This document shows, piece after piece, positions 9,060 to 62,860 of a stretch of 64,000 nt of DNA. Each line of letters opens with the position of its first letter. The first letter of the stretch is position 1. The stretch lies in the NCBI GenBank assembly GCA_964479375.1, contig CAYZKD010000001.1, positions 7,540-71,539 on the forward strand, read 5' to 3'. Both the position numbers and the translations under genes were made by a program. The notes under the pieces were generated by a model. It worked only from the letters and a program-made list of their open reading frames with translations, did no database searches and was not told the origin of the DNA. Source of the stretch: an uncultured Candidatus Saccharibacteria bacterium (GTDB taxonomy: Bacteria; Patescibacteriota; Minisyncoccia; Minisyncoccales; GWA2-38-27).

Positions 9060-9791
9060 ATGTACTTATCTGTTATTGTTCCGGCCTATAATGAGGAGAG
9101 GAGGCTGCCCAAAACCTTAAGATCTATTAATGGCTATTTAGAAAATCAAAACTACGATTATGAGATTCTGGTGGTTTCTGACGGGTCTAAAGACAAAACA
9201 GCAGAGGTTGCCCGCGATCTTATGGGTGAGATCGGCGGATTGAGAGTAATAGACAATAAAAAAAACCATGGCAAGGGTTTTGTTGTAAGGCAGGGCTTAA
9301 CGGAGGCCAAGGGAGAAATAAGGCTATTTACAGACGCTGACGACTCTACCTCCGTAGACCAGGTAGAAAAGATGTTCCCCTTTTTCAAAAAGGGCTTTGA
9401 TATCGTAATAGGATCTAGGGACATAAAGGGCGCAGTTTTGGATCCCCCTCAGCCTTGGCGCAGAAGAATAATAGGGGACGTCTTCAATTTAATGGTTCAG
9501 GTTGTTGTGGGGCTTTGGGGTGTTTGGGATACTCAGTGCGGATTTAAGGCTTTTTCTTCAAGAGTTGTTCAGGATGTCCTGTCTTTGTGCGAGATAGACA
9601 GATGGGCCTTTGATCCTGAAGTGCTAAAGATAGCAAAGAAAAAAGGGTATAAGATAAAAGAGGTTCCCGTGAGGTGGGTTAACGATCCCGACAGCAAAGT
9701 GAATCTAAAAGGAATGATGAGGATGGGGGTGGATCTCCTTAAGATAAGGTGGAATTTAATTACTGGAAAATATGCCCAAAAAGAAAAATAA
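9060..9791 (+). CDS. family 2 glycosyltransferase (dolichyl/polyprenyl-phosphate sugar synthase-like)
   Basis: GT-A fold N-terminus (LSVIVPAYNEERRLPKTL...ILVVSDGSKDKT), a DAD motif (TDADDS) and QCGFKAF. Confidence 0.85.
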   Translation: MYLSVIVPAYNEERRLPKTLRSINGYLENQNYDYEILVVSDGSKDKTAEVARDLMGEIGGLRVIDNKKNHGKGFVVRQGLTEAKGEIRLFTDADDSTSVDQVEKMFPFFKKGFDIVIGSRDIKGAVLDPPQPWRRRIIGDVFNLMVQVVVGLWGVWDTQCGFKAFSSRVVQDVLSLCEIDRWAFDPEVLKIAKKKGYKIKEVPVRWVNDPDSKVNLKGMMRMGVDLLKIRWNLITGKYAQKEK

Positions 9792-10809
9792 ATTTCCTTC
9801 AGAGCTAAGGTCTGATTTGGCTTCAAGAGACTGGGTGATAATTGCCACAGGAAGGGCAAGGAGACCCGAGACATTTAAGAAAGAGAAAAGGGCGGCCCAG
9901 GCTACTCCCAAAAAGGATTGCCCTTTTTGTGATATTAAAACACAAGAGAAGGCCACTCTCGTTTTTTCTAGGGGCAGAGAGGTCCCTTTTAAGCAGTGGA
10001 GGGACCTGCCCAAAGATTGGAGCGTGGTGGTTGTTCCCAATAAATATCCTGCTTTCAGGCCGTATCCTAAACTAAATACTAAAACCGAGAACGGCCTTTA
10101 TACCAAAATGAATGCAGTGGGATTTCATGAAGTGGTGGTGACAAGAGACCATAAAAAACAAGTAGCCCAGTTTTCCAAAGATAAAGTGAAAGAACTCATG
10201 GATGTTTACCAGAAAAGATATCTAGGATTAAAGGATAAAAAATTTGTCAATCATATTTCTATTTTCCATAATCACGGGCAAGAAGCCGGCGCCTCTATCG
10301 GCCATCCTCACTCCCAAATTATTACCACCCCCCTTATTGATGTTGATTTACAGGAGGCTCTTTCTAATTCAAGAAAGTTTAAAAAAAGGAAGAAAGACTG
10401 TATTTACTGCAAAATGAACGAGTGGGAAATGAGGAAAAAAGAAAGGATTGTCTTCGAGAATAAAAACTTTCTGGCGGTTTGTCCCTTTGCCTCCAAAACT
10501 GCCTTCCAGACCATAGTTTCCCCGAAGAAGCACCAATCTTATTTCGAAGAGGTAACAGAAAAAGAAAAAGAGAGTTTGGCAGAAGCATTTGGAGAAACAA
10601 TAAGAAAGATTTACAAAGGCCTTGATGATCCTGCCTACAACTTTTATCTGCATACTGCCCCTTGCGACGGCAATAAACACGATTATTATCATTGGCACTG
10701 GACCATTCTGCCCAAGACCTCAATTTGGGCGGGATTTGAGTTAGGCACTCAAATGGAAATTTCTACCATTGAACCCGAAAAAGCGGCAGACTATTTGAGG
10801 AAACAGTAG
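9772..10809 (+). CDS. galT: galactose-1-phosphate uridylyltransferase-like protein (HIT superfamily, GalT family)
   Basis: Zinc-site CPFCD, active-site HPHSQI (the H-x-H-x-Q nucleotidyl-transfer motif), a second CIYCK motif, and two HIT-like half-domains. Confidence 0.7.
   Translation: MPKKKNKFPSELRSDLASRDWVIIATGRARRPETFKKEKRAAQATPKKDCPFCDIKTQEKATLVFSRGREVPFKQWRDLPKDWSVVVVPNKYPAFRPYPKLNTKTENGLYTKMNAVGFHEVVVTRDHKKQVAQFSKDKVKELMDVYQKRYLGLKDKKFVNHISIFHNHGQEAGASIGHPHSQIITTPLIDVDLQEALSNSRKFKKRKKDCIYCKMNEWEMRKKERIVFENKNFLAVCPFASKTAFQTIVSPKKHQSYFEEVTEKEKESLAEAFGETIRKIYKGLDDPAYNFYLHTAPCDGNKHDYYHWHWTILPKTSIWAGFELGTQMEISTIEPEKAADYLRKQ
10759..10808. repeat. 50-bp direct repeat, copy 1 (last 50 nt of galT)
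   Basis: ATTTCTACCATTGAACCCGAAAAAGCGGCAGACTATTTGAGGAAACAGTA is exactly repeated at 10947-10996, flanking a 138-bp insertion. Confidence 0.9.
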
Positions 10810-10850
10810 ACCTTAAAATATATCATATTATCAGGATCGGTAGAAATTTC

Positions 10851-10935
10851 GGTTTCCCCCGTGTCGGAAAACAGCCCCGCTTTTAGCGGGACGTTAGAAA
10901 CCGAGGGTTTCTAAAAAGGGGGGGCGGGGGAAACC
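10851..10935 (-). repeat. MITE-like palindromic element, copy A (family with terminal inverted repeats GGTTTCCCCCG / CGGGGGAAACC)
   Basis: 85 bp with a perfect 11-bp terminal inverted repeat and a nested near-palindrome TTAGAAACCGAGGGTTTCTAA. Its conserved ends match two more copies at 62224-62319 and 62424-62519, in opposite orientation, with a different central hairpin. Confidence 0.7.
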
Positions 10936-10946
10936 GTATGAACGTA

Positions 10947-10996
10947 ATTTCTACCATTGAACCCGAAAAAGCGGCAGACTATTTGAGGAAACAGTA
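10947..10996. repeat. 50-bp direct repeat, copy 2 (duplicate of the galT 3' end)
   Basis: Identical to 10759-10808. It is followed by TAA instead of TAG. Confidence 0.9.
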
Positions 10997-31036: not shown

Positions 31037-31157
31037 TAAGAACCTGAGCTTCGCTCAGAACCTTGTTTCGCCAAGGAATAATTATATAGTCTTGAAGTAA
31101 GAACCTGAGCTTCGCTCAGAACCTTGATTCGCTAAGGTAAAGCACATAGTCTTGAAA
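31037..31157. repeat. two tandem direct repeats of about 60 bp, each with a small hairpin, in the mreB2-gatC spacer
   Basis: Unit AAGAACCTGAGCTTCGCTCAGAACCTTG(T/A)TTCGC(C/T)AAGG...ATAGTCTTGAA(G/A)T occurs at 31037-31097 and 31098-31157. Each has the hairpin CTGAGCTTCGCTCAG. Confidence 0.7.
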
Positions 31158-33477: not shown

Positions 33478-33790
33478 CGCGGGGTGGAGAAGTAGTATCT
33501 CACGAGGCCCATGCATTAGTGTGGCCAAAGACGGAAACGCCTTTGGAAAAACTCCTGAAATTGCTGGAAAACCATAAGAGTTTCTCTTGCTACAACGCAA
33601 TCTGTAAAGATAGGCGTGAATGTTTAAAAAAAGAGGAAATTTGGCAACCAGCAGCCAAGCCTCCTGATCGGAGGAAGGTTCAGAGACTATAATAGGAGCT
33701 CCCCTTTGGGGAGATGGGATAGTCCATTCCATTTGGAAACAGATGGTATTTAAGAACCTCGAGACGCGGGTGCAATTCCCGCCCCCGCAA
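33478..33790 (+). tRNA. initiator tRNA-fMet(CAT) interrupted by a group I intron (exons 33478-33512 and 33755-33790)
   Basis: The 5' exon CGCGGGGUGGAGA...CGAGGCCCAU and 3' exon AACCUCGAGACGCGGGUGCAAUUCCCGCCCCCGCAA rebuild a 71-nt tRNA. It shows the bacterial-initiator hallmarks: C1xA72 mismatch, the CGCGGGG/CCCCGCAA acceptor (identical to E. coli tRNA-fMet), anticodon stem CGAGG/CCUCG, anticodon CAU. Confidence 0.75.
33513..33754 (+). ncRNA. group I self-splicing intron (242 nt) in the tRNA-fMet anticodon loop
   Basis: The 5' splice site follows U (P1 pairing CCAU with GUGG at 33521-33524) and the intron ends with G (omega G at 33754). Core elements: P AATTGCTGGAAA (33562-33573), Q AACCAGCAGC (33647-33656) with a compensatory change relative to P, R GTTCAGAGACTATAA (33678-33692), S GATAGTCC (33718-33725). 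Confidence 0.7.
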
Positions 33791-33987: not shown

Positions 33988-34058
33988 GCCGGGGAGTAGA
34001 ATGGCATCTAAGGCCGTCTCATAAGCGGTTAACGTGGGTTCGATTCCCGCCCCCGGCA
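33988..34058 (+). tRNA. tRNA with CAT anticodon (elongator Met or lysidine-Ile2), slightly non-canonical D-arm
   Basis: Acceptor GCCGGGG/CCCCGGC, T-arm GTGGG-TTCGATT-CCCGC, anticodon loop CTCATAA. The D-loop is short (6 nt) and the anticodon stem has wobble pairs. The antisense ORF reads GAGIEPT, which is typical over a tRNA. Confidence 0.55.
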
Positions 34059-34064
34059 TATAAT

Positions 34065-34139
34065 GCGGACGTAGCTTAGCTGGCTTAAAGCGCCGCCCTG
34101 TCACGGCGGAGATCGTGGGTTCAAATCCCATCGTCCGCG
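34065..34139 (+). tRNA. tRNA-Asp(GTC)
   Basis: GCGGACG-TA-GCTTAGCTGGCTTAAAGCG-CCGCC-CTGTCAC-GGCGG-AGATC-GTGGG-TTCAAAT-CCCAT-CGTCCGC-G. The cloverleaf is regular and CCA is not encoded. Confidence 0.9.
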
Positions 34140-34352
34140 CAATAATCTGACTTTCTGGAAGTTTTTCTAAATTTTCGGCGGCGGGGCAAAGCGCCGCCCA
34201 ATGTGTTTTGAGGGAGAAATTCGTCTCGTTCGGCGTGCCTTGCGGTTTGCCAAAATGAGGTTCAACCCGAAAATTTTCTTGGCAGTAGCCTTTTTATCTA
34301 AAAGGCTGCTCGCGGGCGAAGATCCTTCCTTCAAATCTCCTTCATTAATGTA

Positions 34353-34380
34353 GGAGGCCCGTCCTCCCACATTTATTTTG
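34353..34380 (+). repeat. hairpin direct repeat, copy 1 (GGAGGCCCGTCCTCCCACATTTATTT)
   Basis: Perfect stem GGGAGG/CCTCCC with loop CCCGT, followed by ACATTTATTTT. An identical 26-mer recurs at 35399-35424, so the pair brackets the CDS 34444-35190. Confidence 0.75.
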
Positions 34381-34443: not shown

Positions 34444-35190
34444 ATGTTTAAATATCTAAATCGTAGCATATCCATGCCAATAGCAATAGGAATTATTGTT
34501 ATTTTAATAATTTTAGTTGGAGGAGGGACATTTATTTACCAGTATTATTGGCCCAAAACAGAACCGCAACCAATATCTTTTTCAAACGATTGTAATGAAT
34601 TAATAAGACAAGTAAGCAATTTAGTTGAAGAAGCAAATTATTGTAATGCGGATTCCGATTGTACGATATCAACCGAAACTACAAAATTCTGCGGTTGTTG
34701 GAGTTTAATTAACAAAAATGCCGATTTGTCAAAAATAAAAGAGGGAAATGAGAAATATAATAAATTAAATTGCCCGATACTTATGTGCGCTGAGTGTATG
34801 CTAACCCCGCAGCAAGAGGATATAGAATGTGTAAATCATAAGTGCGTTGTATCTTCTTCTGGCATCGTTAAGTTGGGGGATATAGTTTCAAACCCGTCCC
34901 AATATAGTAATAAAACTGTAATCGTTGAAGGAAAATACGGGGGCTGGAAACCCACAGCCGATATTCCCTGCAATGAGGCGAATATAGCAATTCTAACAAA
35001 AAGCGATACGCTAATTTATGATGGCACCGATTGTTTGTTTATGTCAGCCATCGGGGGGGTTAATATTTTATCCGAACCGAAAAATCTAAACCCAGTAGAA
35101 AACTCCATAAATATTGGCCAAGATATTAAGGTAGAAGCAGTAGTTAACTTGATCAACGGAAAACCAATCCTAGGGCTGATAAACCAATAA
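34444..35190 (+). CDS. cysteine-rich secreted or membrane-anchored protein, AT-rich (putative horizontally acquired cargo)
   Basis: N-terminal signal anchor (MPIAIGIIVILIILVGGG). There are 14 Cys including CNADSDC, CGC, CPILMCAEC and CVNHKC. Codon usage is markedly more AT-rich than neighbouring genes. Confidence 0.6.
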   Translation: MFKYLNRSISMPIAIGIIVILIILVGGGTFIYQYYWPKTEPQPISFSNDCNELIRQVSNLVEEANYCNADSDCTISTETTKFCGCWSLINKNADLSKIKEGNEKYNKLNCPILMCAECMLTPQQEDIECVNHKCVVSSSGIVKLGDIVSNPSQYSNKTVIVEGKYGGWKPTADIPCNEANIAILTKSDTLIYDGTDCLFMSAIGGVNILSEPKNLNPVENSINIGQDIKVEAVVNLINGKPILGLINQ

Positions 35191-35398
35191 ACGACTCTAA
35201 TAATAAAGCCGAATAAAAAAGAAAATCAAATGTTTCGAAAATAAAATTTTTTAGCGGCGGGGCGGGACACCTAAAATTTTATGTTGGGGTTTTCTATAAA
35301 AAAGGTTCTAACTTGGCCGTAAAGACGCGCAGAGTTTTAATATTAGAATCCAGATTCCATTGTGCCGGTTCATATGGCATTATCCAAAAAAATGTGGG

Positions 35399-35424
35399 AG
35401 GCCCGTCCTCCCACATTTATTTGT
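35399..35424 (+). repeat. hairpin direct repeat, copy 2, followed by a second related hairpin (GGAGGTTCGTCCTCC)
   Basis: Identical to 34355-34380. The adjacent hairpin at 35428-35442 has the same stem with a different loop. Confidence 0.75.
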
Positions 35425-56962: not shown

Positions 56963-59900
56963 TCAGGAAGAATTTACAATTTCTTCGATCGCTTCTGCGA
57001 TAAGCTTTATTTCTCCCTGCCTGTCGTCTACTCTGGCTGAGACAAACACAACCTTATTCTCTTCAAAAACGTCAGGGTTTTTTTCCATAATGCTCGGGAA
57101 AACAACAACCTCTCTTTTGCCGGTCAGATCTTCTAATTGCATGAAGAGCATTGATTTTCCGTTTTTGGTAAGTATTTTTTTTATTCCAGAAATAATGCCG
57201 CCGACCCTTACTCTTCTATTGGTTAAGGAGGTTCCAATTTTCGCCAGAGAGAGCGCTCCCTCTTTAAAAACATTCCTGTAGTCTTCTAGGGGATGGGAGC
57301 TGATATAGAGCCCCAAAAGCTCTTTTTCCCAGCCTAGTTTTTTGAAATTGGAAACGGGTTCTGCCGAAGCCAGATTAAGGTGGTTATTAAACTTTGATCC
57401 GTCAAACAATCCTTTTTGGCCGTTCTCTTTAGATTTACTTTTTTCTCTAACGGCCTCTAAGACTCTTTCCATGTTTTGGAATAAGCGGTTTCTTTCCCCA
57501 AACTCGTCAAAGACCCCGGCTCTGATTAAGCTTTCTAAGGACTTCTTGTTTAAGACGCCGCTGTCCATTCTTTCTGCGAAATCCCCAATAGACTTGAAGG
57601 GGCCTCTCTCTTTTTTTTCTTTGACAATGGCGTCTACTACATTCTCTCCCACGTTTTTAATAGCCAAAAGCCCGAAGCGGATTTGTTTTTTATCAGGGAT
57701 TACAGTGAAGTTTTTTAAACTTTCGTTGAGACTGGGGGGGAGGGTTTCGATATCCATTTCGCGTGCGTTTTCTATAAGTATAGCAATCTTTTCTACGTCG
57801 TTTCTTTCAGAGGTCATTAAAGAAGCCATAAATTCTACCGGGTAGTGGGCCTTCAAATAGGCGGTCTGGTAGGCGATCATGGCATAGGCTGTCGAGTGCG
57901 AGTTATGAACAAAAATATCATTGGCTATGAAATTGTGAGTGTCTTTAATGGTCAGATCAAAGGTTTCCTCTGTTCCTTTGGGCGCAATGGAGGCGATCTC
58001 ATCCCAAAAAACATCAGAGGTGGCGTATTTTTCCAATTCCTTGCTATGCATTGATTGAGAAATAAAAGAAACGGCCTCTCTTAAATATCCCTTTTTCTCG
58101 GGATCTTTAAGAAACAATCTCTTTGAAAAACTGTTTTCTCTGCTTATCTGAGCGAAAGTTAGCATTTCTCTCTCGGCTGTCTGTCGCATAATGTCAACTA
58201 CAATATTTGCCGGTACAATATCTCTGCTTCCCCGGGCTGGCCATGGTTTTATGGTTCCGTTTAGAATTGGGTGGGCTTTCTTTATCTCTTCTAACACCCC
58301 CTTTTTTTCTTTCAGTGAATAGGGGCTGAGGTGCTTGATGAACTTTTGGATGTTGTCGTGGCGGCTGATATTAATTGTATATCCTATTTTCACCCCTTCT
58401 CTGTATCTGAATTTCTTTTTGTGGATAACCGAGATGATGCCTAGCCTGAGCAGCAGGCTCTGGAAGGCTTCGGCAATAGCAGCAGAGGACGTGGAGTAAA
58501 AGATAGCAGGGAGCTTGTTTTTGAAATTAATACAACCGTCACCCTGGAACATCTTGGCTGCAAGAAGAGCAACCTTTGATTCGGGAAGCTGGAAAACAAA
58601 TTCTGGTAGGAATTTTTGGGTTGCTTTCTTGTTGTGTAATCCCAGACCCCTGATCCATTCTACTGCTTCTGATTTTTCTTTTCTGTTTTTTCTTTTTGAG
58701 TAGACTGCAATGGCTTTCTTTTTGTAGTCTTTTCTTCCAAGAGTATTATCAAATTTTTCCAGGTAACGAATGTAGTCTTCTATCTCTTCCTTTGATTTTG
58801 AATAGAAATAGAAACCGCGAGGATGGCAGAAGTTGCCCTCGGCCAGAAGATAGCCCAAAATGGCGACCTTGTGGTCTTCAATGTCAACAGGCTTTGAGGG
58901 CTCTGGAACAATTCTCGGAGTTGCAACTCTTTCTCCAACCTTGATTTCCTCGAGCTTTTTCCAGCCATCCCCTGTAAGGAAGGGGTGGTTTTTGGTAACT
59001 TTTATTCTCTTTCCGGTTTTGGTTCTGACTTCAAATACAGGCTTCCTGCCATTTGAAAAAACATCAACTATTTTTGACTTCTTTATCTTGAGATCTTTGG
59101 AAAGGGAGAAAGCTCCTTTGGCTCGTTTTTTGTCGTTTAAAAGGTCTGTTACTTTCACCCTTTCGCCTGTTTCCGGGTTGATTATCTTTGTGTCGCCGGT
59201 TACGCACTTGTTAAAGCCATAGCGGGCAAAAGGCAAGATCCATTGCCAGATCTTTTCGCCCACTTCTTTTTTTATACCGTTTTTTACAGTGCCCTCGATA
59301 AACTTTTTCTTCTGGCCATGAAGCAATTTTTCTATTTTCTTTCCCACCGCTTTTCTCAAGATATCTGCTTCTGAGAGAGTAAACCCCGCTATTTCCCTGG
59401 CAATTCTCATCAACTGCTCTTGATAAATGCAGATACCGTTTGTTTCTTCAAGGATGGGTTTTAGTTTTGGGTGTAGATACTCGGTTTTCTGACGACCGTG
59501 TCTTCTTTCAATAAAATCAGGAAGAAACTGCATGGGTCCTGGGCGATAAAGGGCAACCATCGCGATGATGTCTTCAAACTTAACAGGCTTTAGCTGCTTG
59601 AGAAATCTCCTAATCCCGCCTCCTTCCAGTTGGAATACTCCTGTCGTATTTCCCTGCTGCAGAAGTTGAAAGGTTTTCTCGTCGTCTAGGGGTATTTCTT
59701 CGATATCTACTTTTTCTTTGTTTCTTACTACATAGATTCTGGCCAAAGTGTCCTCAATGATGGTAAGATTTTTTAGGCCCAAAAAATCCATTTTCAATAA
59801 TCCCAAATCTTCAATGGCGTGCATTTCATACTGGGTTACTATAGTTTCATCGTTTTGGGTGGGGCGTTGAAGAGGAACTGAATTAGTAAGAGGGTCTGCC

Positions 59901-61438
59901 GATATCACTACGCCGCAGGCATGAGTAGAGGCGTGCCGGGCCACTCCTTCTAATTTCAGAGCCAAATCTATTAATCTTTTTGCCTGTTCGTCTGATTGGT
60001 ATAAGTCCTTGAACTCTTTTACTTTCTTTAAGGTTTCTTCCAGAGAGAACCCAAAGGGAATCATCTTGGCTATTTTATCGCAATAGCCATAGCTGTAATT
60101 TAAAACCCTGCCCACGTCTCTTATTACGGCCCTGGCTGCCATTGTTCCAAAAGTTATAATTTGGGCTACTCTTTCTCTTCCATATTCTTGGGCGACATAA
60201 GATATTACTTCGTCTCTTCTTCTGTCTGCAAAGTCAAGGTCAATATCTGGCATAGAAACTCTTTCCGGATTTAAGAATCTTTCAAAGAGAAGATCGTATT
60301 TAAGGGGGTTAATATTAGTGATATTCAGAAGATAGGCGGCCAAAGATCCGCCCACAGAGCCCCTTCCCGGTCCTACAATGATGCGGTTTTCTTTTGCCCA
60401 GTTAACAAAGTCCTGAACAATAAGAAAATAAGAGGCAAAACCCGTCTGTTTGATTACAGACAACTCGTATTCTAGGCGGTCTTCCATTTCTTTTTTATAA
60501 TTCTTCCCGAATTTTTCTTCTAATCCCCTATAGCACAATTCTTTTAAATGTTCCTCTGTTGTTTTTTTATCTGGCAAGTCAAACCTAGGTAGTTTCGTCT
60601 TTCCCAGTTCAAGTTCAAAATTGCACTTTTCTGCTATCTTTTGGGTATTCTCTATGGCCTGAGGCACGTTCTTGAAGGCTTTCTTCATTTCTTCGGGAGA
60701 CTTTAAGGAGAGGTCTTCGGTCTTCATGGTGAGACGTTCGGGATCGTTTTGGTCGGCCCCGGTGTTTATCATCATTAAAATATCTTGAGCCTGTCCGTCT
60801 TCTGTTTTCAAATAATGAACGTCATTAGTGGCTACCAGAGGGATATCAAGCTCTTTTGCCATGGGGATTATAGATTTATTGACTTTAACCTGGCCTTCGT
60901 TTTGAGGATGGTGCTGTATTTCTAGATAAAAATCTTCTCCGAAAATCTTTTTGTATTTTAAAGCCACTCTTTTAGCCTCCTCTTCTTTTTTAGCCAGAAT
61001 AAGGCGAGGAATTTTTCCCTGTATACAGGCCGTACAGGCGACGAGCCCTTCGGAATATTGTTCTAAAATCTCTTCGTCTATTCTTGGTTTATAATAAAAG
61101 CCCTCAAGATGGGCTTTGGTCACTAATTTTACAAGGTTTTCGTATCCCTTTTTGTTCTTGGCAAGCAGGAGAAGATGATATCTGGTATCGTCAATTCTGG
61201 GTCTTTTCTGTTGCCTGCTCTCGTAGGCCTGATAGACCTCGCACCCTATGATTGGTTTTATGCCTCTTTCTTTGGCTTTTTGGAAGAATTCTACTGCGCC
61301 ATACATTACCCCATGGTCGGTAAGAGCCAAAGAGTCCATGCCCAATTCCTTTGCGTAATCTAAAAGTTCTTCGGGCTTGGCTAGCCCGTCTAATAAGGAG
61401 TAGTGGGAGTGGACGTGCAGGTGGGTAAATTTAGACAT
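56963..61438 (-). CDS. dnaE: DNA polymerase III alpha subunit precursor containing an intein (mature about 1056 aa)
   Basis: PHP domain (HLHVHSHYSLLDG), palm and fingers domains, then ...ILPFARYGFNK | SHSTAYAMIAYQTAYLKAHYPVEF split by the intein, and a C-terminal OB fold. Confidence 0.95.
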   Translation of the reverse strand: MSKFTHLHVHSHYSLLDGLAKPEELLDYAKELGMDSLALTDHGVMYGAVEFFQKAKERGIKPIIGCEVYQAYESRQQKRPRIDDTRYHLLLLAKNKKGYENLVKLVTKAHLEGFYYKPRIDEEILEQYSEGLVACTACIQGKIPRLILAKKEEEAKRVALKYKKIFGEDFYLEIQHHPQNEGQVKVNKSIIPMAKELDIPLVATNDVHYLKTEDGQAQDILMMINTGADQNDPERLTMKTEDLSLKSPEEMKKAFKNVPQAIENTQKIAEKCNFELELGKTKLPRFDLPDKKTTEEHLKELCYRGLEEKFGKNYKKEMEDRLEYELSVIKQTGFASYFLIVQDFVNWAKENRIIVGPGRGSVGGSLAAYLLNITNINPLKYDLLFERFLNPERVSMPDIDLDFADRRRDEVISYVAQEYGRERVAQIITFGTMAARAVIRDVGRVLNYSYGYCDKIAKMIPFGFSLEETLKKVKEFKDLYQSDEQAKRLIDLALKLEGVARHASTHACGVVISADPLTNSVPLQRPTQNDETIVTQYEMHAIEDLGLLKMDFLGLKNLTIIEDTLARIYVVRNKEKVDIEEIPLDDEKTFQLLQQGNTTGVFQLEGGGIRRFLKQLKPVKFEDIIAMVALYRPGPMQFLPDFIERRHGRQKTEYLHPKLKPILEETNGICIYQEQLMRIAREIAGFTLSEADILRKAVGKKIEKLLHGQKKKFIEGTVKNGIKKEVGEKIWQWILPFARYGFNKCVTGDTKIINPETGERVKVTDLLNDKKRAKGAFSLSKDLKIKKSKIVDVFSNGRKPVFEVRTKTGKRIKVTKNHPFLTGDGWKKLEEIKVGERVATPRIVPEPSKPVDIEDHKVAILGYLLAEGNFCHPRGFYFYSKSKEEIEDYIRYLEKFDNTLGRKDYKKKAIAVYSKRKNRKEKSEAVEWIRGLGLHNKKATQKFLPEFVFQLPESKVALLAAKMFQGDGCINFKNKLPAIFYSTSSAAIAEAFQSLLLRLGIISVIHKKKFRYREGVKIGYTINISRHDNIQKFIKHLSPYSLKEKKGVLEEIKKAHPILNGTIKPWPARGSRDIVPANIVVDIMRQTAEREMLTFAQISRENSFSKRLFLKDPEKKGYLREAVSFISQSMHSKELEKYATSDVFWDEIASIAPKGTEETFDLTIKDTHNFIANDIFVHNSHSTAYAMIAYQTAYLKAHYPVEFMASLMTSERNDVEKIAILIENAREMDIETLPPSLNESLKNFTVIPDKKQIRFGLLAIKNVGENVVDAIVKEKKERGPFKSIGDFAERMDSGVLNKKSLESLIRAGVFDEFGERNRLFQNMERVLEAVREKSKSKENGQKGLFDGSKFNNHLNLASAEPVSNFKKLGWEKELLGLYISSHPLEDYRNVFKEGALSLAKIGTSLTNRRVRVGGIISGIKKILTKNGKSMLFMQLEDLTGKREVVVFPSIMEKNPDVFEENKVVFVSARVDDRQGEIKLIAEAIEEIVNSS
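57902..59206 (-). mobile_element. dnaE intein (435 aa) with a LAGLIDADG endonuclease domain
   Basis: Starts CVTGDTKIINPETGE after FNK, ends DIFVHN, and the +1 residue is Ser. LAGLIDADG-like blocks ILGYLLAEGNF and LLAAKMFQGDGCI. Boundaries were checked codon by codon on the minus strand. Confidence 0.85.
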
Positions 61439-61526: not shown

Positions 61527-62168
61527 ATGGAAAAACCAGATCTTAAAGAGGAAAAAATTGCTTGGAGGAAGGGGCACAGAAGAATATTGGGAGTAGACGA
61601 ATCCGGCAGAGGTTGCCTGGCAGGTCCGGTTGTGGCAGCGGCTGTTTCTTTGGATAGGCCTTCTAAGCATTTTTTAAATAAATTTCCGGGACTGAAAGAC
61701 TCCAAGAAACTTTCTGCTTCTAAAAGAGAGGATATTTTTAAACTCGCTCGTCTAGACCCGAGAGTAAAGTGGAGTGTTGCCAGGGTCTCAGGAAAAGTGA
61801 TTGATAGAATCAACATCTTTGAGGCTACAAAACTGGCCATGAAGAAAGCGGTGCTGAGCCTGGAGACAGATTTTATCCTTATAGACGGGATAATCAAGTT
61901 AGATCTTGATATCCCCCAGAAATATGTTGTTAGGGGAGACGACAGAATTTTCTCCTGTGCCCTGGCCTCTGTTTTTGCAAAAGTCATCAGGGACAAGGCC
62001 ATGGTAAAATACCATAAAAAATATTCTTGTTACGGCTTTGACAGGCACAAGGGATATTCCACTCGGTTGCATCAGAGCAATATTGAACAATACGGTTTAT
62101 GCAAAATCCATAGGAGAAGTTACGCTCCCTGCCGGCAAGCCCTTGCCAAAAGACGATTTTCTTGTTAG
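61527..62168 (+). CDS. rnhB: ribonuclease HII
   Basis: ILGVDESGRGCLAGPVVAAAV, DSKKLS, LIDG. Confidence 0.9.
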   Translation: MEKPDLKEEKIAWRKGHRRILGVDESGRGCLAGPVVAAAVSLDRPSKHFLNKFPGLKDSKKLSASKREDIFKLARLDPRVKWSVARVSGKVIDRINIFEATKLAMKKAVLSLETDFILIDGIIKLDLDIPQKYVVRGDDRIFSCALASVFAKVIRDKAMVKYHKKYSCYGFDRHKGYSTRLHQSNIEQYGLCKIHRRSYAPCRQALAKRRFSC

Positions 62169-62223
62169 GTTATAAGATAATATGGCAGTTCCAAAGCAGA
62201 GGAAAACAAAATCACGATCACAG

Positions 62224-62319
62224 GGTTTCCCCCGACCCCCTTTTAGAAACCCGCGGTTTCTAACATTTTTGGCTTTGCTCCGCTCGGCCAAAAGCCTGTT
62301 TTCCTACACGGGGGAAACC
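62224..62319 (+). repeat. MITE-like palindromic element, copy B1 (same family as 10851-10935)
   Basis: GGTTTCCCCCGACCCCCTTTTAGAAACCCGCGGTTTCTAAC...CGGGGGAAACC. Ends and sub-palindrome are conserved with copy A, reverse-complemented. The central hairpin differs. Confidence 0.7.
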
Positions 62320-62423
62320 CCGATTTTGTTGAGATTTTGATTACTTTTTTTCTCCGGACATATTTTTTTTAATACTATATTATGGCAGTTCCAAAGCAGA
62401 GGAAAACAAAATCACGATCACAG

Positions 62424-62519
62424 GGTTTCCCCCGACCCCCTTTTAGAAACCCGCGGTTTCTAACATTTTTGGCTTTGCTCCGCTCGGCCAAAAGCCTGTT
62501 TTCCTACACGGGGGAAACC
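62424..62519 (+). repeat. MITE-like palindromic element, copy B2 (identical to B1)
   Basis: Identical sequence, 200 bp downstream of B1. Confidence 0.7.
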
Positions 62520-62581
62520 CCGATTTTGTTGAGATTTTGATTACTTTTTTTCTCCGGACATATTTTTTTTAATACTATATT

Positions 62582-62860
62582 ATGGCAGTTCCAAAGCAGA
62601 GGAAAACAAAATCGAGGAGAGATAAAAGAAGGATGCATATTTCTGTCAAAAAACCTGATTTAACCGCTTGCCCCAAATGCGGCAGTTTGGTCAGGCCCCA
62701 TACGGCTTGTTCAAAATGCGGTTTTTACAGAGGGAGAGAGGTAATAAATATTATGGAAAAAATGGATAAAAAGGAAAGGAAGAAAAAGGAAAAAGAAATG
62801 GCAGAACAGGAAAAGCAGGAGAAAAAACCTTTAAATATGGAGAAATTGTCTCAGAAATAA
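62582..62860 (+). CDS. rpmF: 50S ribosomal protein L32 with a KE-rich C-terminal extension
   Basis: [17 protein letters not shown]...[20 protein letters not shown] matches L32. An extra tail of about 35 aa follows. Confidence 0.85.

Follow-up and report, generated by a model that had tools for sequence, protein, structure and literature searches.

The described systems closest in working principle to the element analysed here appear to be the IS200/IS605 elements and intron homing. IS608 acts in a strand-specific manner through folded hairpins, chooses its sites by pairing with an internal guide of 4-5 nucleotides (nt), and inserts 3' of the paired target. Here, we describe a stretch of 64,000 nt (the window) from an uncultured Candidatus Saccharibacteria bacterium (GenBank assembly GCA_964479375.1, contig CAYZKD010000001.1, positions 7,540 to 71,539), in which the start of rpmF, the gene for ribosomal protein L32, is found three times in a row. 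The 400 bp between the first start and the remaining rpmF gene are probably two identical units of a small mobile element that encodes no protein and carries a guide complementary to its target. As far as our limited searches can tell, the element family is apparently undescribed and of a new kind.

The region from 62181 to 62613 has the layout A-B-A-B-A, where A is a 33-nt segment consisting of the first 32 nt of rpmF and one upstream base. The initial annotation of this region had proposed that the rpmF start is triplicated at 200-nt spacing within two perfect 200-bp units, and both statements are correct. The 32-mer ATGGCAGTTCCAAAGCAGAGGAAAACAAAATC occurs exactly three times in the window, at 62182, 62382 and 62582, and positions 62182-62381 and 62382-62581 agree at 200 of 200 positions. 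Tandem Repeats Finder assigned the repeat a period of 200, 2.2 copies, 99% matches and a score of 867, and the perfect repeat A lies at 62181-62213, 62381-62413 and 62581-62613. The decoy open reading frames (ORFs) that had been suspected behind the first two start codons were also found: the ATGs of A1 and A2 each open an ORF of 52 amino acids (62182-62340 and 62382-62540), identical in sequence, that runs into the element. The ATG of A3 opens the L32 gene itself (62582-62860, 92 amino acids; Pfam Ribosomal_L32p, E 4.9e-23). In contrast, the claim of a triplicated promoter did not hold. The AT-rich, -10-like segment that was thought to precede each copy, TTTTTTTTAATACTATATT, occurs twice, 5' of A2 and A3 only; upstream of A1 the sequence is different (...TAGGTTATAAGATAAT) and overlaps the rnhB stop codon, so that A1 keeps the resident rnhB-proximal upstream region and just copies 2 and 3 share the AT-rich tail. 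The locus reads as follows:

61527-62168, plus strand: rnhB (RNase HII), the resident upstream gene, assigned from its ORF and from PF01351 on an identical Logan protein
62143-62148 and 62166-62171: promoter-like TTGCCA-17 nt-TAGGTT in the last rnhB codons, 10 nt before A1, recognised by eye against relatives
62181-62213, plus strand: A1, taken as the resident rpmF start (T+ATG...AAAATC), with the rnhB spacing seen in relatives
within 62181-62213, plus strand: segment L, the last 9 nt of A1, AACAAAATC, which pairs with the guide
62214-62223, plus strand: 5' linker of unit 1, ACGATCACAG (W-type consensus ACGAWCACAG), a bulge between the L:guide helix and helix P1
62224-62234, plus strand: pyrimidine strand of P1/hp2, a split hairpin, in unit 1, GGTTTCCCCCG
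62235-62242, plus strand: A + CCCCCTT in unit 1, in parallel register to the purine strand and triplex-forming-like
62243-62264, plus strand: invariant hairpin hp1 of unit 1, TTAGAAACC-CGC-GGTTTCTAAC, the family signature
62265-62295, plus strand: variable hairpin of unit 1, unlike the galT copy in sequence and still forming a hairpin
62296-62308, plus strand: conserved joiner of unit 1, CTGTTTTCCTACA
62309-62319, plus strand: purine strand of P1/hp2 in unit 1, CGGGGGAAACC
62320-62330, plus strand: guide of unit 1, CCGATTTTGTT, which spans the junction as the complement of the intact target, AACAAAATC followed by GG (rpmF codons 8-12)
62331-62380, plus strand: tail of unit 1, U/T-rich and then an AT-rich promoter-like segment that abuts the next ATG
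62381-62413, plus strand: A2, the second rpmF-start copy, which opens the second decoy ORF
62414-62580, plus strand: unit 2 (linker, core, guide and tail), an exact copy of 62214-62380
62581-62860, plus strand: A3 (62581-62613), continuous with the remaining rpmF; the junction between L and the following segment R lies between 62613 and 62614

The arrangement of the sequence leads us to regard A1 as the resident start, with two copies of linker, core, guide, tail and A inserted between nt 32 and 33 of rpmF. A metagenome scan with L32 identified 80 related rpmF loci (L122-L201, 48-71% identity), which were inspected from -500 to +700. All 80 have a single start and no core, and the target, AAAACAAAATC followed by AAGAAG, is conserved. 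This comparison, which had been suggested in the initial annotation, supports insertion and speaks against an ancestral arrangement. nusB is located 3' of rpmF in essentially all 80 relatives and rnhB is located 5' in approximately 40 of them. The relatives carry a sigma-70-like TTGAAA-17-TAGGAT or TATGAT, followed after 8-9 nt by the ATG; A1 is preceded by TTGCCA-17-TAGGTT-10-ATG, at native distance from rnhB. The residency of A1 rests mainly on this position and spacing, because the sequence similarity is marginal, and the idea that the tail is a recognisable copy of the relatives' rpmF promoter was dropped, as the scores did not exceed those of shuffled controls. In the present arrangement, the resident promoter on the rnhB side would drive a decoy ORF into the element, and L32 is probably expressed from the tail of the last unit. 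The promoter calls are weak: a sigma-70 scan of the rpmF units returned weak, consensus-level sites only, one of which overlaps the ATG. Each unit also contains a small GC hairpin and a U-rich tract that resemble a terminator. No record was found of the exact L32 protein or of the exact decoy ORF product.

Two further features of this gene pair were noted. In the related loci L122-L201, a -10-like box precedes the rpmF ATG by 8-10 nt and no Shine-Dalgarno sequence is visible by eye, which suggests that L32 mRNAs are leaderless or near-leaderless in this clade. RnhB in the window has 213 amino acids and its alignments to relatives stop at residues 199-207; the C-terminal tail overlaps the region that serves as rpmF promoter region in the relatives.

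A second copy of the element is present in the window at the end of a galT-like gene. The initial annotation had already connected the rpmF repeat with positions 10759-10996 and with the duplication of adjacent gene ends. Both links were substantiated, since the same element is found there on the other strand (10809-10945), where the 3' terminus of the galT-like ORF flanks it as two perfect 51-nt repeats. The features of this locus are:

10758-10808, plus strand: 51-nt repeat copy that ends in the TA of the stop codon TAG and is continuous with the galT-like ORF (9772-10809)
10809-10945, minus strand: W-type element of 137 nt with the same core as the rpmF units
10839-10849, minus strand: guide AAATTTCTACC, the complement of these positions
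10850-10861 and 10925-10936, minus strand: the two strands of P1
10893-10914, minus strand: hp1
10946-10996, plus strand: displaced 51-nt repeat copy, which ends in the TA of TAA and whose start is abutted by the 5' linker of the element

In the sense of the rpmF strand, both loci share one order of parts: the end of A, a 10-nt linker ACG(A/T)TCA(C/T)A(G/C), GGTTTCCCCCG, A or C followed by CCCCCTT, the hairpin TTAGAAACC-NNN-GGTTTCTAAC, a locus-specific hairpin, CTGTTTTCC(T/G)ACA, CGGGGGAAACC and a guide of about 10 nt. The complementary pairs are different in the two cases: at rpmF, the target AACAAAATC followed across the junction by GAGG is matched by CCCCGATTTTGTT in the element, and at the galT-like gene the target GGTAGAAATT followed by TC is matched by GAAATTTCTACC. 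The GC skew in the window is dominated by the gene strand, and the two element loci are oppositely oriented on what seems to be one replichore.

The family was searched by exact match to 19 specified bases of hp1 in contigs from one genome per species. At least 119 loci were recovered, nearly all of them in metagenome-assembled genomes of Patescibacteria (Paceibacteria/Parcubacteria groups, Saccharibacteria and others). The matches listed include a complete chromosome of 617 kb, and at L105, L017 and L110 the repeat-element-repeat layout is also present in assemblies that are named complete chromosome or have long-read-style contig names. The signature TTAGAAACC-N3-GGTTTCTAAC, the joiner CTGTTTTCC, and hp2 with its parallel-covarying strand are present in all three window copies. 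Two subtypes were recognised. In the M type, with approximately 100 copies listed, the order is linker, hp1, variable hairpin, joiner, a closed hp2 (CGGGGAAACC-loop-GGTTTCCCCG), ACCCCCTYCC and guide. In the W type, to which the window copies belong, the loop of hp2 is opened, and the 5' and 3' ends and the guide are located there. The two types are circular permutations of one core, and termini at two different places of one core argue for a three-dimensional module and not for a pair of transposase-binding ends.

Several family members deviate from these layouts. In the M-type copy L052, the loop of hp2 holds a W-type 5' linker, ACGATCACAC, as if the W-type termini had been closed into a junction or the two permutations had recombined. 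At L062 (approximately 575-800) and L092, a W-type element is directly followed by an inverted and diverged copy in head-to-head orientation, and the L092 pair is located in or beside a 23S rRNA gene. M-type copies with neither a flanking repeat nor a target-specific guide, such as L118 (near 880), L010, L108 and L116, share a conserved 3' extension, CCGATNTGGGRT. Read on the opposite strand, each precedes a start codon by approximately 20 nt, and the genes concerned are unrelated; such copies may be old, fixed or domesticated.

An exact flanking direct repeat of at least 12 nt was detected for 49 of 125 instances, 38 of which passed position filters. Of these 38 elements, 22 contain the complement of a target 7-mer that ends at the junction, 10-18 do so at offsets from -4 to +8, and only 0-3 beyond ±12; one artefactual peak in this test stems from hairpins in the tails. 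The upstream pairing arm and the upstream repeat copy end at exactly the same base. Over 9-22 nt, the guide is the complement of the target as it stands without an insert, and it reaches across the junction into both L and R, with 22 perfect pairs in L113. It also covaries with the target between two insertions into rpmF: target and guide are AACAAAATC and GATTTTGTT in the window, and ATACAAAAT and ATTTTGTAT in L019. L019 is from a different lineage, where a W-type element occupies the same rpmF site with a guide fitted to its own target. Its two repeat copies differ at four synonymous sites only, which implies that one copy came from another rpmF allele, and this pattern recurs in the glycosyltransferase repeats of L012. 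With respect to rpmF mRNA the guide is antisense, but it is in sense orientation to the galT and tRNA transcripts. Since this relation varies with the locus, the pairing concerns DNA or the element's own strand, and antisense regulation of the target mRNA was ruled out.

The exact flanking repeats are locus-specific and 12-66 nt long, with 33 nt at rpmF, 51 nt at the galT-like gene and 15-18 nt at tRNA genes, and enclose inserts of 105-184 nt without an ORF. In approximately 17 insertions into tRNA genes, the tRNA is encoded on the F strand (in element orientation, the one opposite to the rpmF reading direction), the junction falls within the T-loop, some 15 nt before the 3' end, and the outer repeat boundary coincides with the tRNA 3' end within 0-3 nt. 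In protein-coding genes, the perfect repeat begins at the junction and extends as far as the ATG in the case of rpmF (window and L019) and of a glycosyltransferase gene (L105 and relatives), and as far as the stop codon in the galT-like gene; in L017, L056 and L107 the copies are located just 5' of start codons. Guide end and junction are at most 84 nt apart, with a cluster at 78-84 nt (83 at rpmF, which is the family mode, 81 at galT, 83 in L017, 82 in L018, 83 in L110 and 84 in L019). Unit lengths likewise cluster at 187-208 nt, and the 200-nt period of the window thus represents the family norm. In two of eight other-locus insertions inspected (L017 and L107), the repeat extends outward at lower identity to the guide, over approximately 82 nt, and L078 and L076 show a looser, indel-bearing similarity outside the perfect repeat. 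On a simple reading, the primary event would duplicate about 82 nt of the target, and the perfect part of the repeat would be the portion that donor and recipient share or that was homogenised. An ordinary short target-site duplication was rejected for these repeats, as the inner end is set by guide pairing and the perfect part usually ends at the gene terminus. Reverse-transcription schemes for the repeat boundaries (target-primed, tRNA-primed, or a stop of reverse transcriptase at m1A58) were also discarded, because no scheme accounts for insertions into tRNA genes and protein genes alike.

The core is highly structured. The window copies fold far better than shuffled sequences (z -4.6 and -5.3), and in the predicted fold of both copies the flank-guide helix stacks on the GGTTTCCCCCG/CGGGGGAAACC helix. 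Over 92 distinct sequences, hp2 contains 777 Watson-Crick pairs, and RNAalifold reported six hp2 pairs with compensatory changes, one of them with A-U in 13 and G-C in 12 sequences. The 7-8 nt after hp2 follow its purine strand in parallel, with C opposite G in 346 of 365 positions and T opposite A in 164 of 254, and variable positions are almost exclusively G/C or A/T combinations. The parallel register 0 accounts for 81% agreement, compared to 72% and 52% in the ±1 registers. In total, 29 double changes were counted versus 11.2±3.4 in shuffles, and none of 500 shuffles reached 29; the covariation score is 0.61, and at most 0.44 in slid registers. The window copies obey the same code, with five G facing five C and two A facing two T. 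Parallel covariation in addition to a Watson-Crick partner indicates base triples, i.e. a mirror repeat that is able to form an intramolecular triple helix.

Several observations bear on the strand that folds. Non-canonical pairs in hp2, read on the rpmF-sense strand, are A:C in 12 cases and G:T in one, and this A:C excess points to wobble pairs on the F strand. GCGAAGC, which is described as a hyperstable DNA mini-hairpin motif (PMC13037366), has 63 F-strand occurrences in linkers and variable regions, approximately 38-fold over background, compared to 7 on the other strand. Neighbouring genes are preferentially located on the F strand (86 versus 23 on the left, 72 versus 36 on the right). 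The third strand of an F-strand triplex would be purine-rich (G·G-C and A·A-T, with T·A-T tolerated) and work at neutral pH, whereas a triplex of the opposite strand would need four to five consecutive protonated cytosines. None of this evidence is decisive, and we lean towards a fold in single-stranded DNA, or RNA, of the F strand.

A unit of about 200 nt would consist of a short linker, the structured core of approximately 100 nt, the guide, the tail and a copy of the target gene terminus (A). It lies exactly 3' of the guide-paired segment L, which at rpmF means after nt 32. Since the unit ends in a promoter-like tail and A, the gene would be rebuilt downstream and an intact target of L and R regenerated, and regeneration by each insertion would explain tandem arrays. 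A second insertion into the regenerated target, or an unequal exchange between A copies, would give A-B-A-B-A. Pairing between guide and target may direct strand cleavage and joining by a trans-acting enzyme, either from the host or unlinked, with the active folded strand being antisense to rpmF and possibly single-stranded DNA, and spread between genomes may proceed through homologous sites. Re-use of a junction is seen in L003, where an M-type element and a different small element stand in tandem at one tRNA T-loop junction with a truncated third element upstream, and similarly in L091. In L003 (668-1094), each element is followed by an identical block of guide, tail and repeat (833-912 and 1017-1094). 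That one junction is used repeatedly in L003 and L091 makes re-insertion at rpmF plausible. The second small element is unrelated, starts with TC(T)CGGTCA(C/T)GAGTTAC, and is present at the same T-loop junction in L003, L091, L024 and L111.

The IS200/IS605 elements and PATEs resemble this system by their strand-specific action, their hairpins, guide-paired sites and insertion 3' of the target, and also by protein-less copies that need an enzyme in trans and by an orientation bias relative to neighbouring genes. They differ in other respects: the guide of the present element comprises 9-22 nt and spans the junction, compared to 4-5 nt in IS608; IS200/IS605 elements make no target repeat, in contrast to the 12-66 nt (possibly about 82 nt) found here; and they have no counterpart to the triplex-type strand and the circular permutations of the core. 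TnpA, TnpB and omega-RNA were not found near the element in the ORFs within ±2.5 kb of 119 listed loci and by Rfam, a search that did not extend to whole genomes. Homing of group II or group I introns shares an internal complement of the joined flanks (IBS1/IBS3 or P1/P10-like), an element 5' end at the end of the pairing, and conserved sites in conserved genes. However, the core of approximately 100 nt contrasts with 250-2500 nt in such introns, its 5' end is ACGAWCACAG and not the GUGYG of group II introns, and Rfam matched it neither to the six-domain ribozyme of group II introns with its domain V nor, by RF00028, to the P3-P9 core of group I introns. In addition, the 3' end of the element abuts the duplicated 5' flank instead of a 3' exon, and by the wobble asymmetry the folded strand would be the one antisense to rpmF. 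Group II introns are reported to be absent from Patescibacteria (PMC13011429), and the single group I intron match in the window (RF00028, 33503-33746) is distinct from the element.

Integrative elements at gene ends are similar in that the repeat extends from the crossover to the gene terminus, the gene remains intact, T-loops are used as sites and a displaced partial copy is left. Yet the 'island' has just 105-170 nt here, with no integrase, and dozens of targets are each fitted by an internal inverted target copy. Integron attC sites and the attP site of CTX-phi, which is used by the host XerCD, also function without an enzyme of their own and with a one-strand structure, and the inverted and direct target copies of the present element can fold into a duplex mimic of a chromosomal site in a comparable way. 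In contrast to these systems, the targets are neither dif nor attI and R/L boxes are missing; an involvement of Xer or IntI is pure conjecture. The bridge (seek) RNA of IS110/IS1111 is likewise a structured non-coding part with a programmable target complement on both sides of the crossover, but the present element has one continuous guide and not two split-guide loops, its target repeats are long, and no adjacent ORF for a DEDD recombinase is conserved at the 119 listed loci. Two further candidates were rejected. A diversity-generating retroelement, whose repeat pair differs at adenines and which has a reverse transcriptase close by, does not fit repeats that are 100% identical and the lack of a recurrent neighbouring protein at the 119 listed loci. 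A CRISPR array, in which short repeats of 23-50 nt alternate with unique spacers of comparable length over at least three units, was dismissed, in line with the initial annotation: both 'spacers' would consist of one and the same 167 nt, and the rpmF start would have to serve as 'repeat'.

Database searches gave no hint of an associated protein or a known RNA. With Rfam 15 at gathering thresholds, no family was assigned to the element in the whole window and in 20 loci, and the only hits in the 20 loci were rRNA, tRNA and RNase P; at E≤10, one W-type and one M-type copy had no match either, including to models of small self-cleaving ribozymes (hammerhead, twister, hatchet, pistol, HDV-like and hairpin). 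Clustering of ORFs within ±2.5 kb of the 119 listed loci revealed no co-travelling protein, and the largest cluster (7 of 119) corresponds to shared target genes. Pfam classified eight of ten unassigned window ORFs as housekeeping and left two without a family, and no transposase, recombinase or reverse transcriptase was detected among them. In viral contigs, two signature matches were obtained, both of which are chance hairpins without the core. No description of the element was found in the full-text literature by our limited searches.

The number of units at rpmF might also be explained without a second insertion. The assembler may have walked twice through the A-B loop of one real unit (A-B-A), and it fits this view that two or more full units occur in the window only among 121 listed loci, that both units are 100% identical, and that independent k=31 Logan contigs (SRR7048220; L120 and L121) break inside the 33-nt repeat. 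Nevertheless, k-mers above 33-42 nt yield the loop only if reads contain the tail-A-linker junction, i.e. if at least two units exist, and serial occupancy of one site is documented in L003 and L091. Such an artefact, which we regard as unlikely, touches the copy number and leaves element, guide and repeat as they are. Alternatively, the element inserted once, and the 33-nt A copies later gave rise to the second unit through replication slippage or unequal homologous exchange. We give this route a rather low probability, though a somewhat higher one than the artefact: it is open to any A-B-A structure and agrees with identical units and with the rarity of tandem identical units among the listed loci. 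On the other hand, 33 nt are short for RecA-dependent exchange, and the tandem arrays of different elements in L003 and L091, which show re-used regenerated targets, cannot be produced in this way.

Other explanations concern the nature of the unit itself. The mobile unit could be parsed differently, as A1, linker, core and guide with a terminal helix that mimics a gene end, inserted outside the gene so that the tail is native flank. The coincidence of the outer repeat boundary with the tRNA 3' end within 0-3 nt, tails that resemble native terminators or promoters, and the displaced, element-side copy in L066, which is a foreign tRNA-Gln allele, would all be expected from this parsing. We still assign it a low probability, as A1 is found at the native rnhB distance with a native-like spacing of -10 box and ATG, the outer boundary is separated by 24 nt (rpmF) and 41 nt (galT) from the segment that pairs with the guide, whereas pairing always stops exactly at the inner junction, and the guide fits the gene-side copy wherever the copies differ. 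The initial annotation had considered the palindromic sequence as resembling MITEs, miniature inverted-repeat transposable elements. A small, repeated, palindromic and protein-less sequence between direct repeats is indeed reminiscent of an ordinary MITE moved by a DDE transposase, with the repeats as a long target-site duplication and the guide as a chance extension of the terminal inverted repeat. This label had to be abandoned in favour of a structured core, roughly 100 nt in length, in which a covarying hairpin is combined with a triplex-like strand and with a guide complementary to the target, and a MITE is now very improbable: the repeats are locus-specific and 12-66 nt long instead of a fixed few bp, the outermost 'terminal repeat' changes with the locus and always fits the local target, and the shared inverted repeat is internal (P1/hp2). 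Moreover, the core is circularly permuted between subtypes, and triplex-type covariation is not anticipated for duplex ends bound by a transposase. Finally, the structured units, each with a terminator-like hairpin and a U tract, precede the gene of a ribosomal protein and could be viewed as a duplicated cis-regulatory leader or attenuator of rpmF that serves ribosomal-protein autoregulation. Its absence from 80 of 80 related rpmF loci, the occurrence of the same core at tRNA 3' ends, the galT-like stop codon, glycosyltransferase starts and rRNA, and the presence of both orientations relative to genes leave this explanation with hardly any likelihood.

Besides the foreign allele in L066, which fits the other parsing, several points weigh against our reading. 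Mobility is deduced from presence/absence and multiplicity only, and no enzyme, moving intermediate or excision product was seen. The two identical units are unique to the window among the 121 listed loci, and the independent contigs break within the repeat. Approximately 60% of the listed family members have no exact flanking repeat of at least 12 nt and no obvious guide, and some of these may be fixed or domesticated RNA or DNA elements and not active insertions. The assignment to the F strand is based on modest counts, and the rpmF copy of the window has the minority orientation, with its F strand antisense to all neighbouring genes. In addition, local alignments of the tail and of the A1 upstream region to the promoters of the relatives do not score above shuffles.

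With these reservations, two units of a guide-carrying mobile element remain the explanation that we favour for rpmF. For the family as a whole, we tentatively propose a new class of mobile elements: protein-less units of about 200 nt that would act as a hairpin-triplex of single-stranded DNA (probably of the lagging or non-template strand), insert by a programmable guide of 10-22 nt into terminal codons of conserved genes or into tRNA T-loops, heal the gene by carrying or creating a gene-end copy of about 82 nt with promoter or terminator, and spread between Patescibacteria via conserved sites by means of a host enzyme. If this is true, a widespread mobile element without a gene of its own exists in Patescibacteria, in genomes of about 1 Mb that are reported to lack group II introns. 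Its target would be selected by base pairing, retargeting would require no more than a change of the guide, and essential genes, such as rpmF and tRNA genes, would be spared by rebuilding their ends. This would add a new principle to those of group II introns, IS605, IS110 and CRISPR-associated transposons (CAST), and would provide a testable and very compact module for programmable insertion. The element would also carry a long base-triple motif with clean three-way covariation, which is rare in nature. In the annotation of these genomes, conserved genes should be expected to show decoy starts and ends, split assemblies and tandem arrays.

Further features were observed elsewhere in the window. 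The group I intron (RF00028, 77.9 bits) at 33503-33746 on the plus strand is located upstream of tRNA-Met (33988-34058) and tRNA-Asp (34065-34140). The ORF of DNA polymerase III alpha (56963-61438, minus strand, 1491 amino acids) contains an intein-like insertion that was recognised by eye (...NKCVTGDTKI ... FVHNSHSTAY...). Between two ORFs, at 31037-31156, a 61-nt unit is present twice with 88% identity and two hairpins in each copy; one hairpin holds GCTTCGC, a motif enriched in the element family, and the repeat may represent another small element or paired terminators. At 34344-34378 and 35386-35420, a palindromic repeat of 35 nt, ATGTGGGAGGCCCGTCCTCCCACAT, brackets an ORF (34444-35190); no transposase is present, and the pair looks like paired bidirectional terminators.

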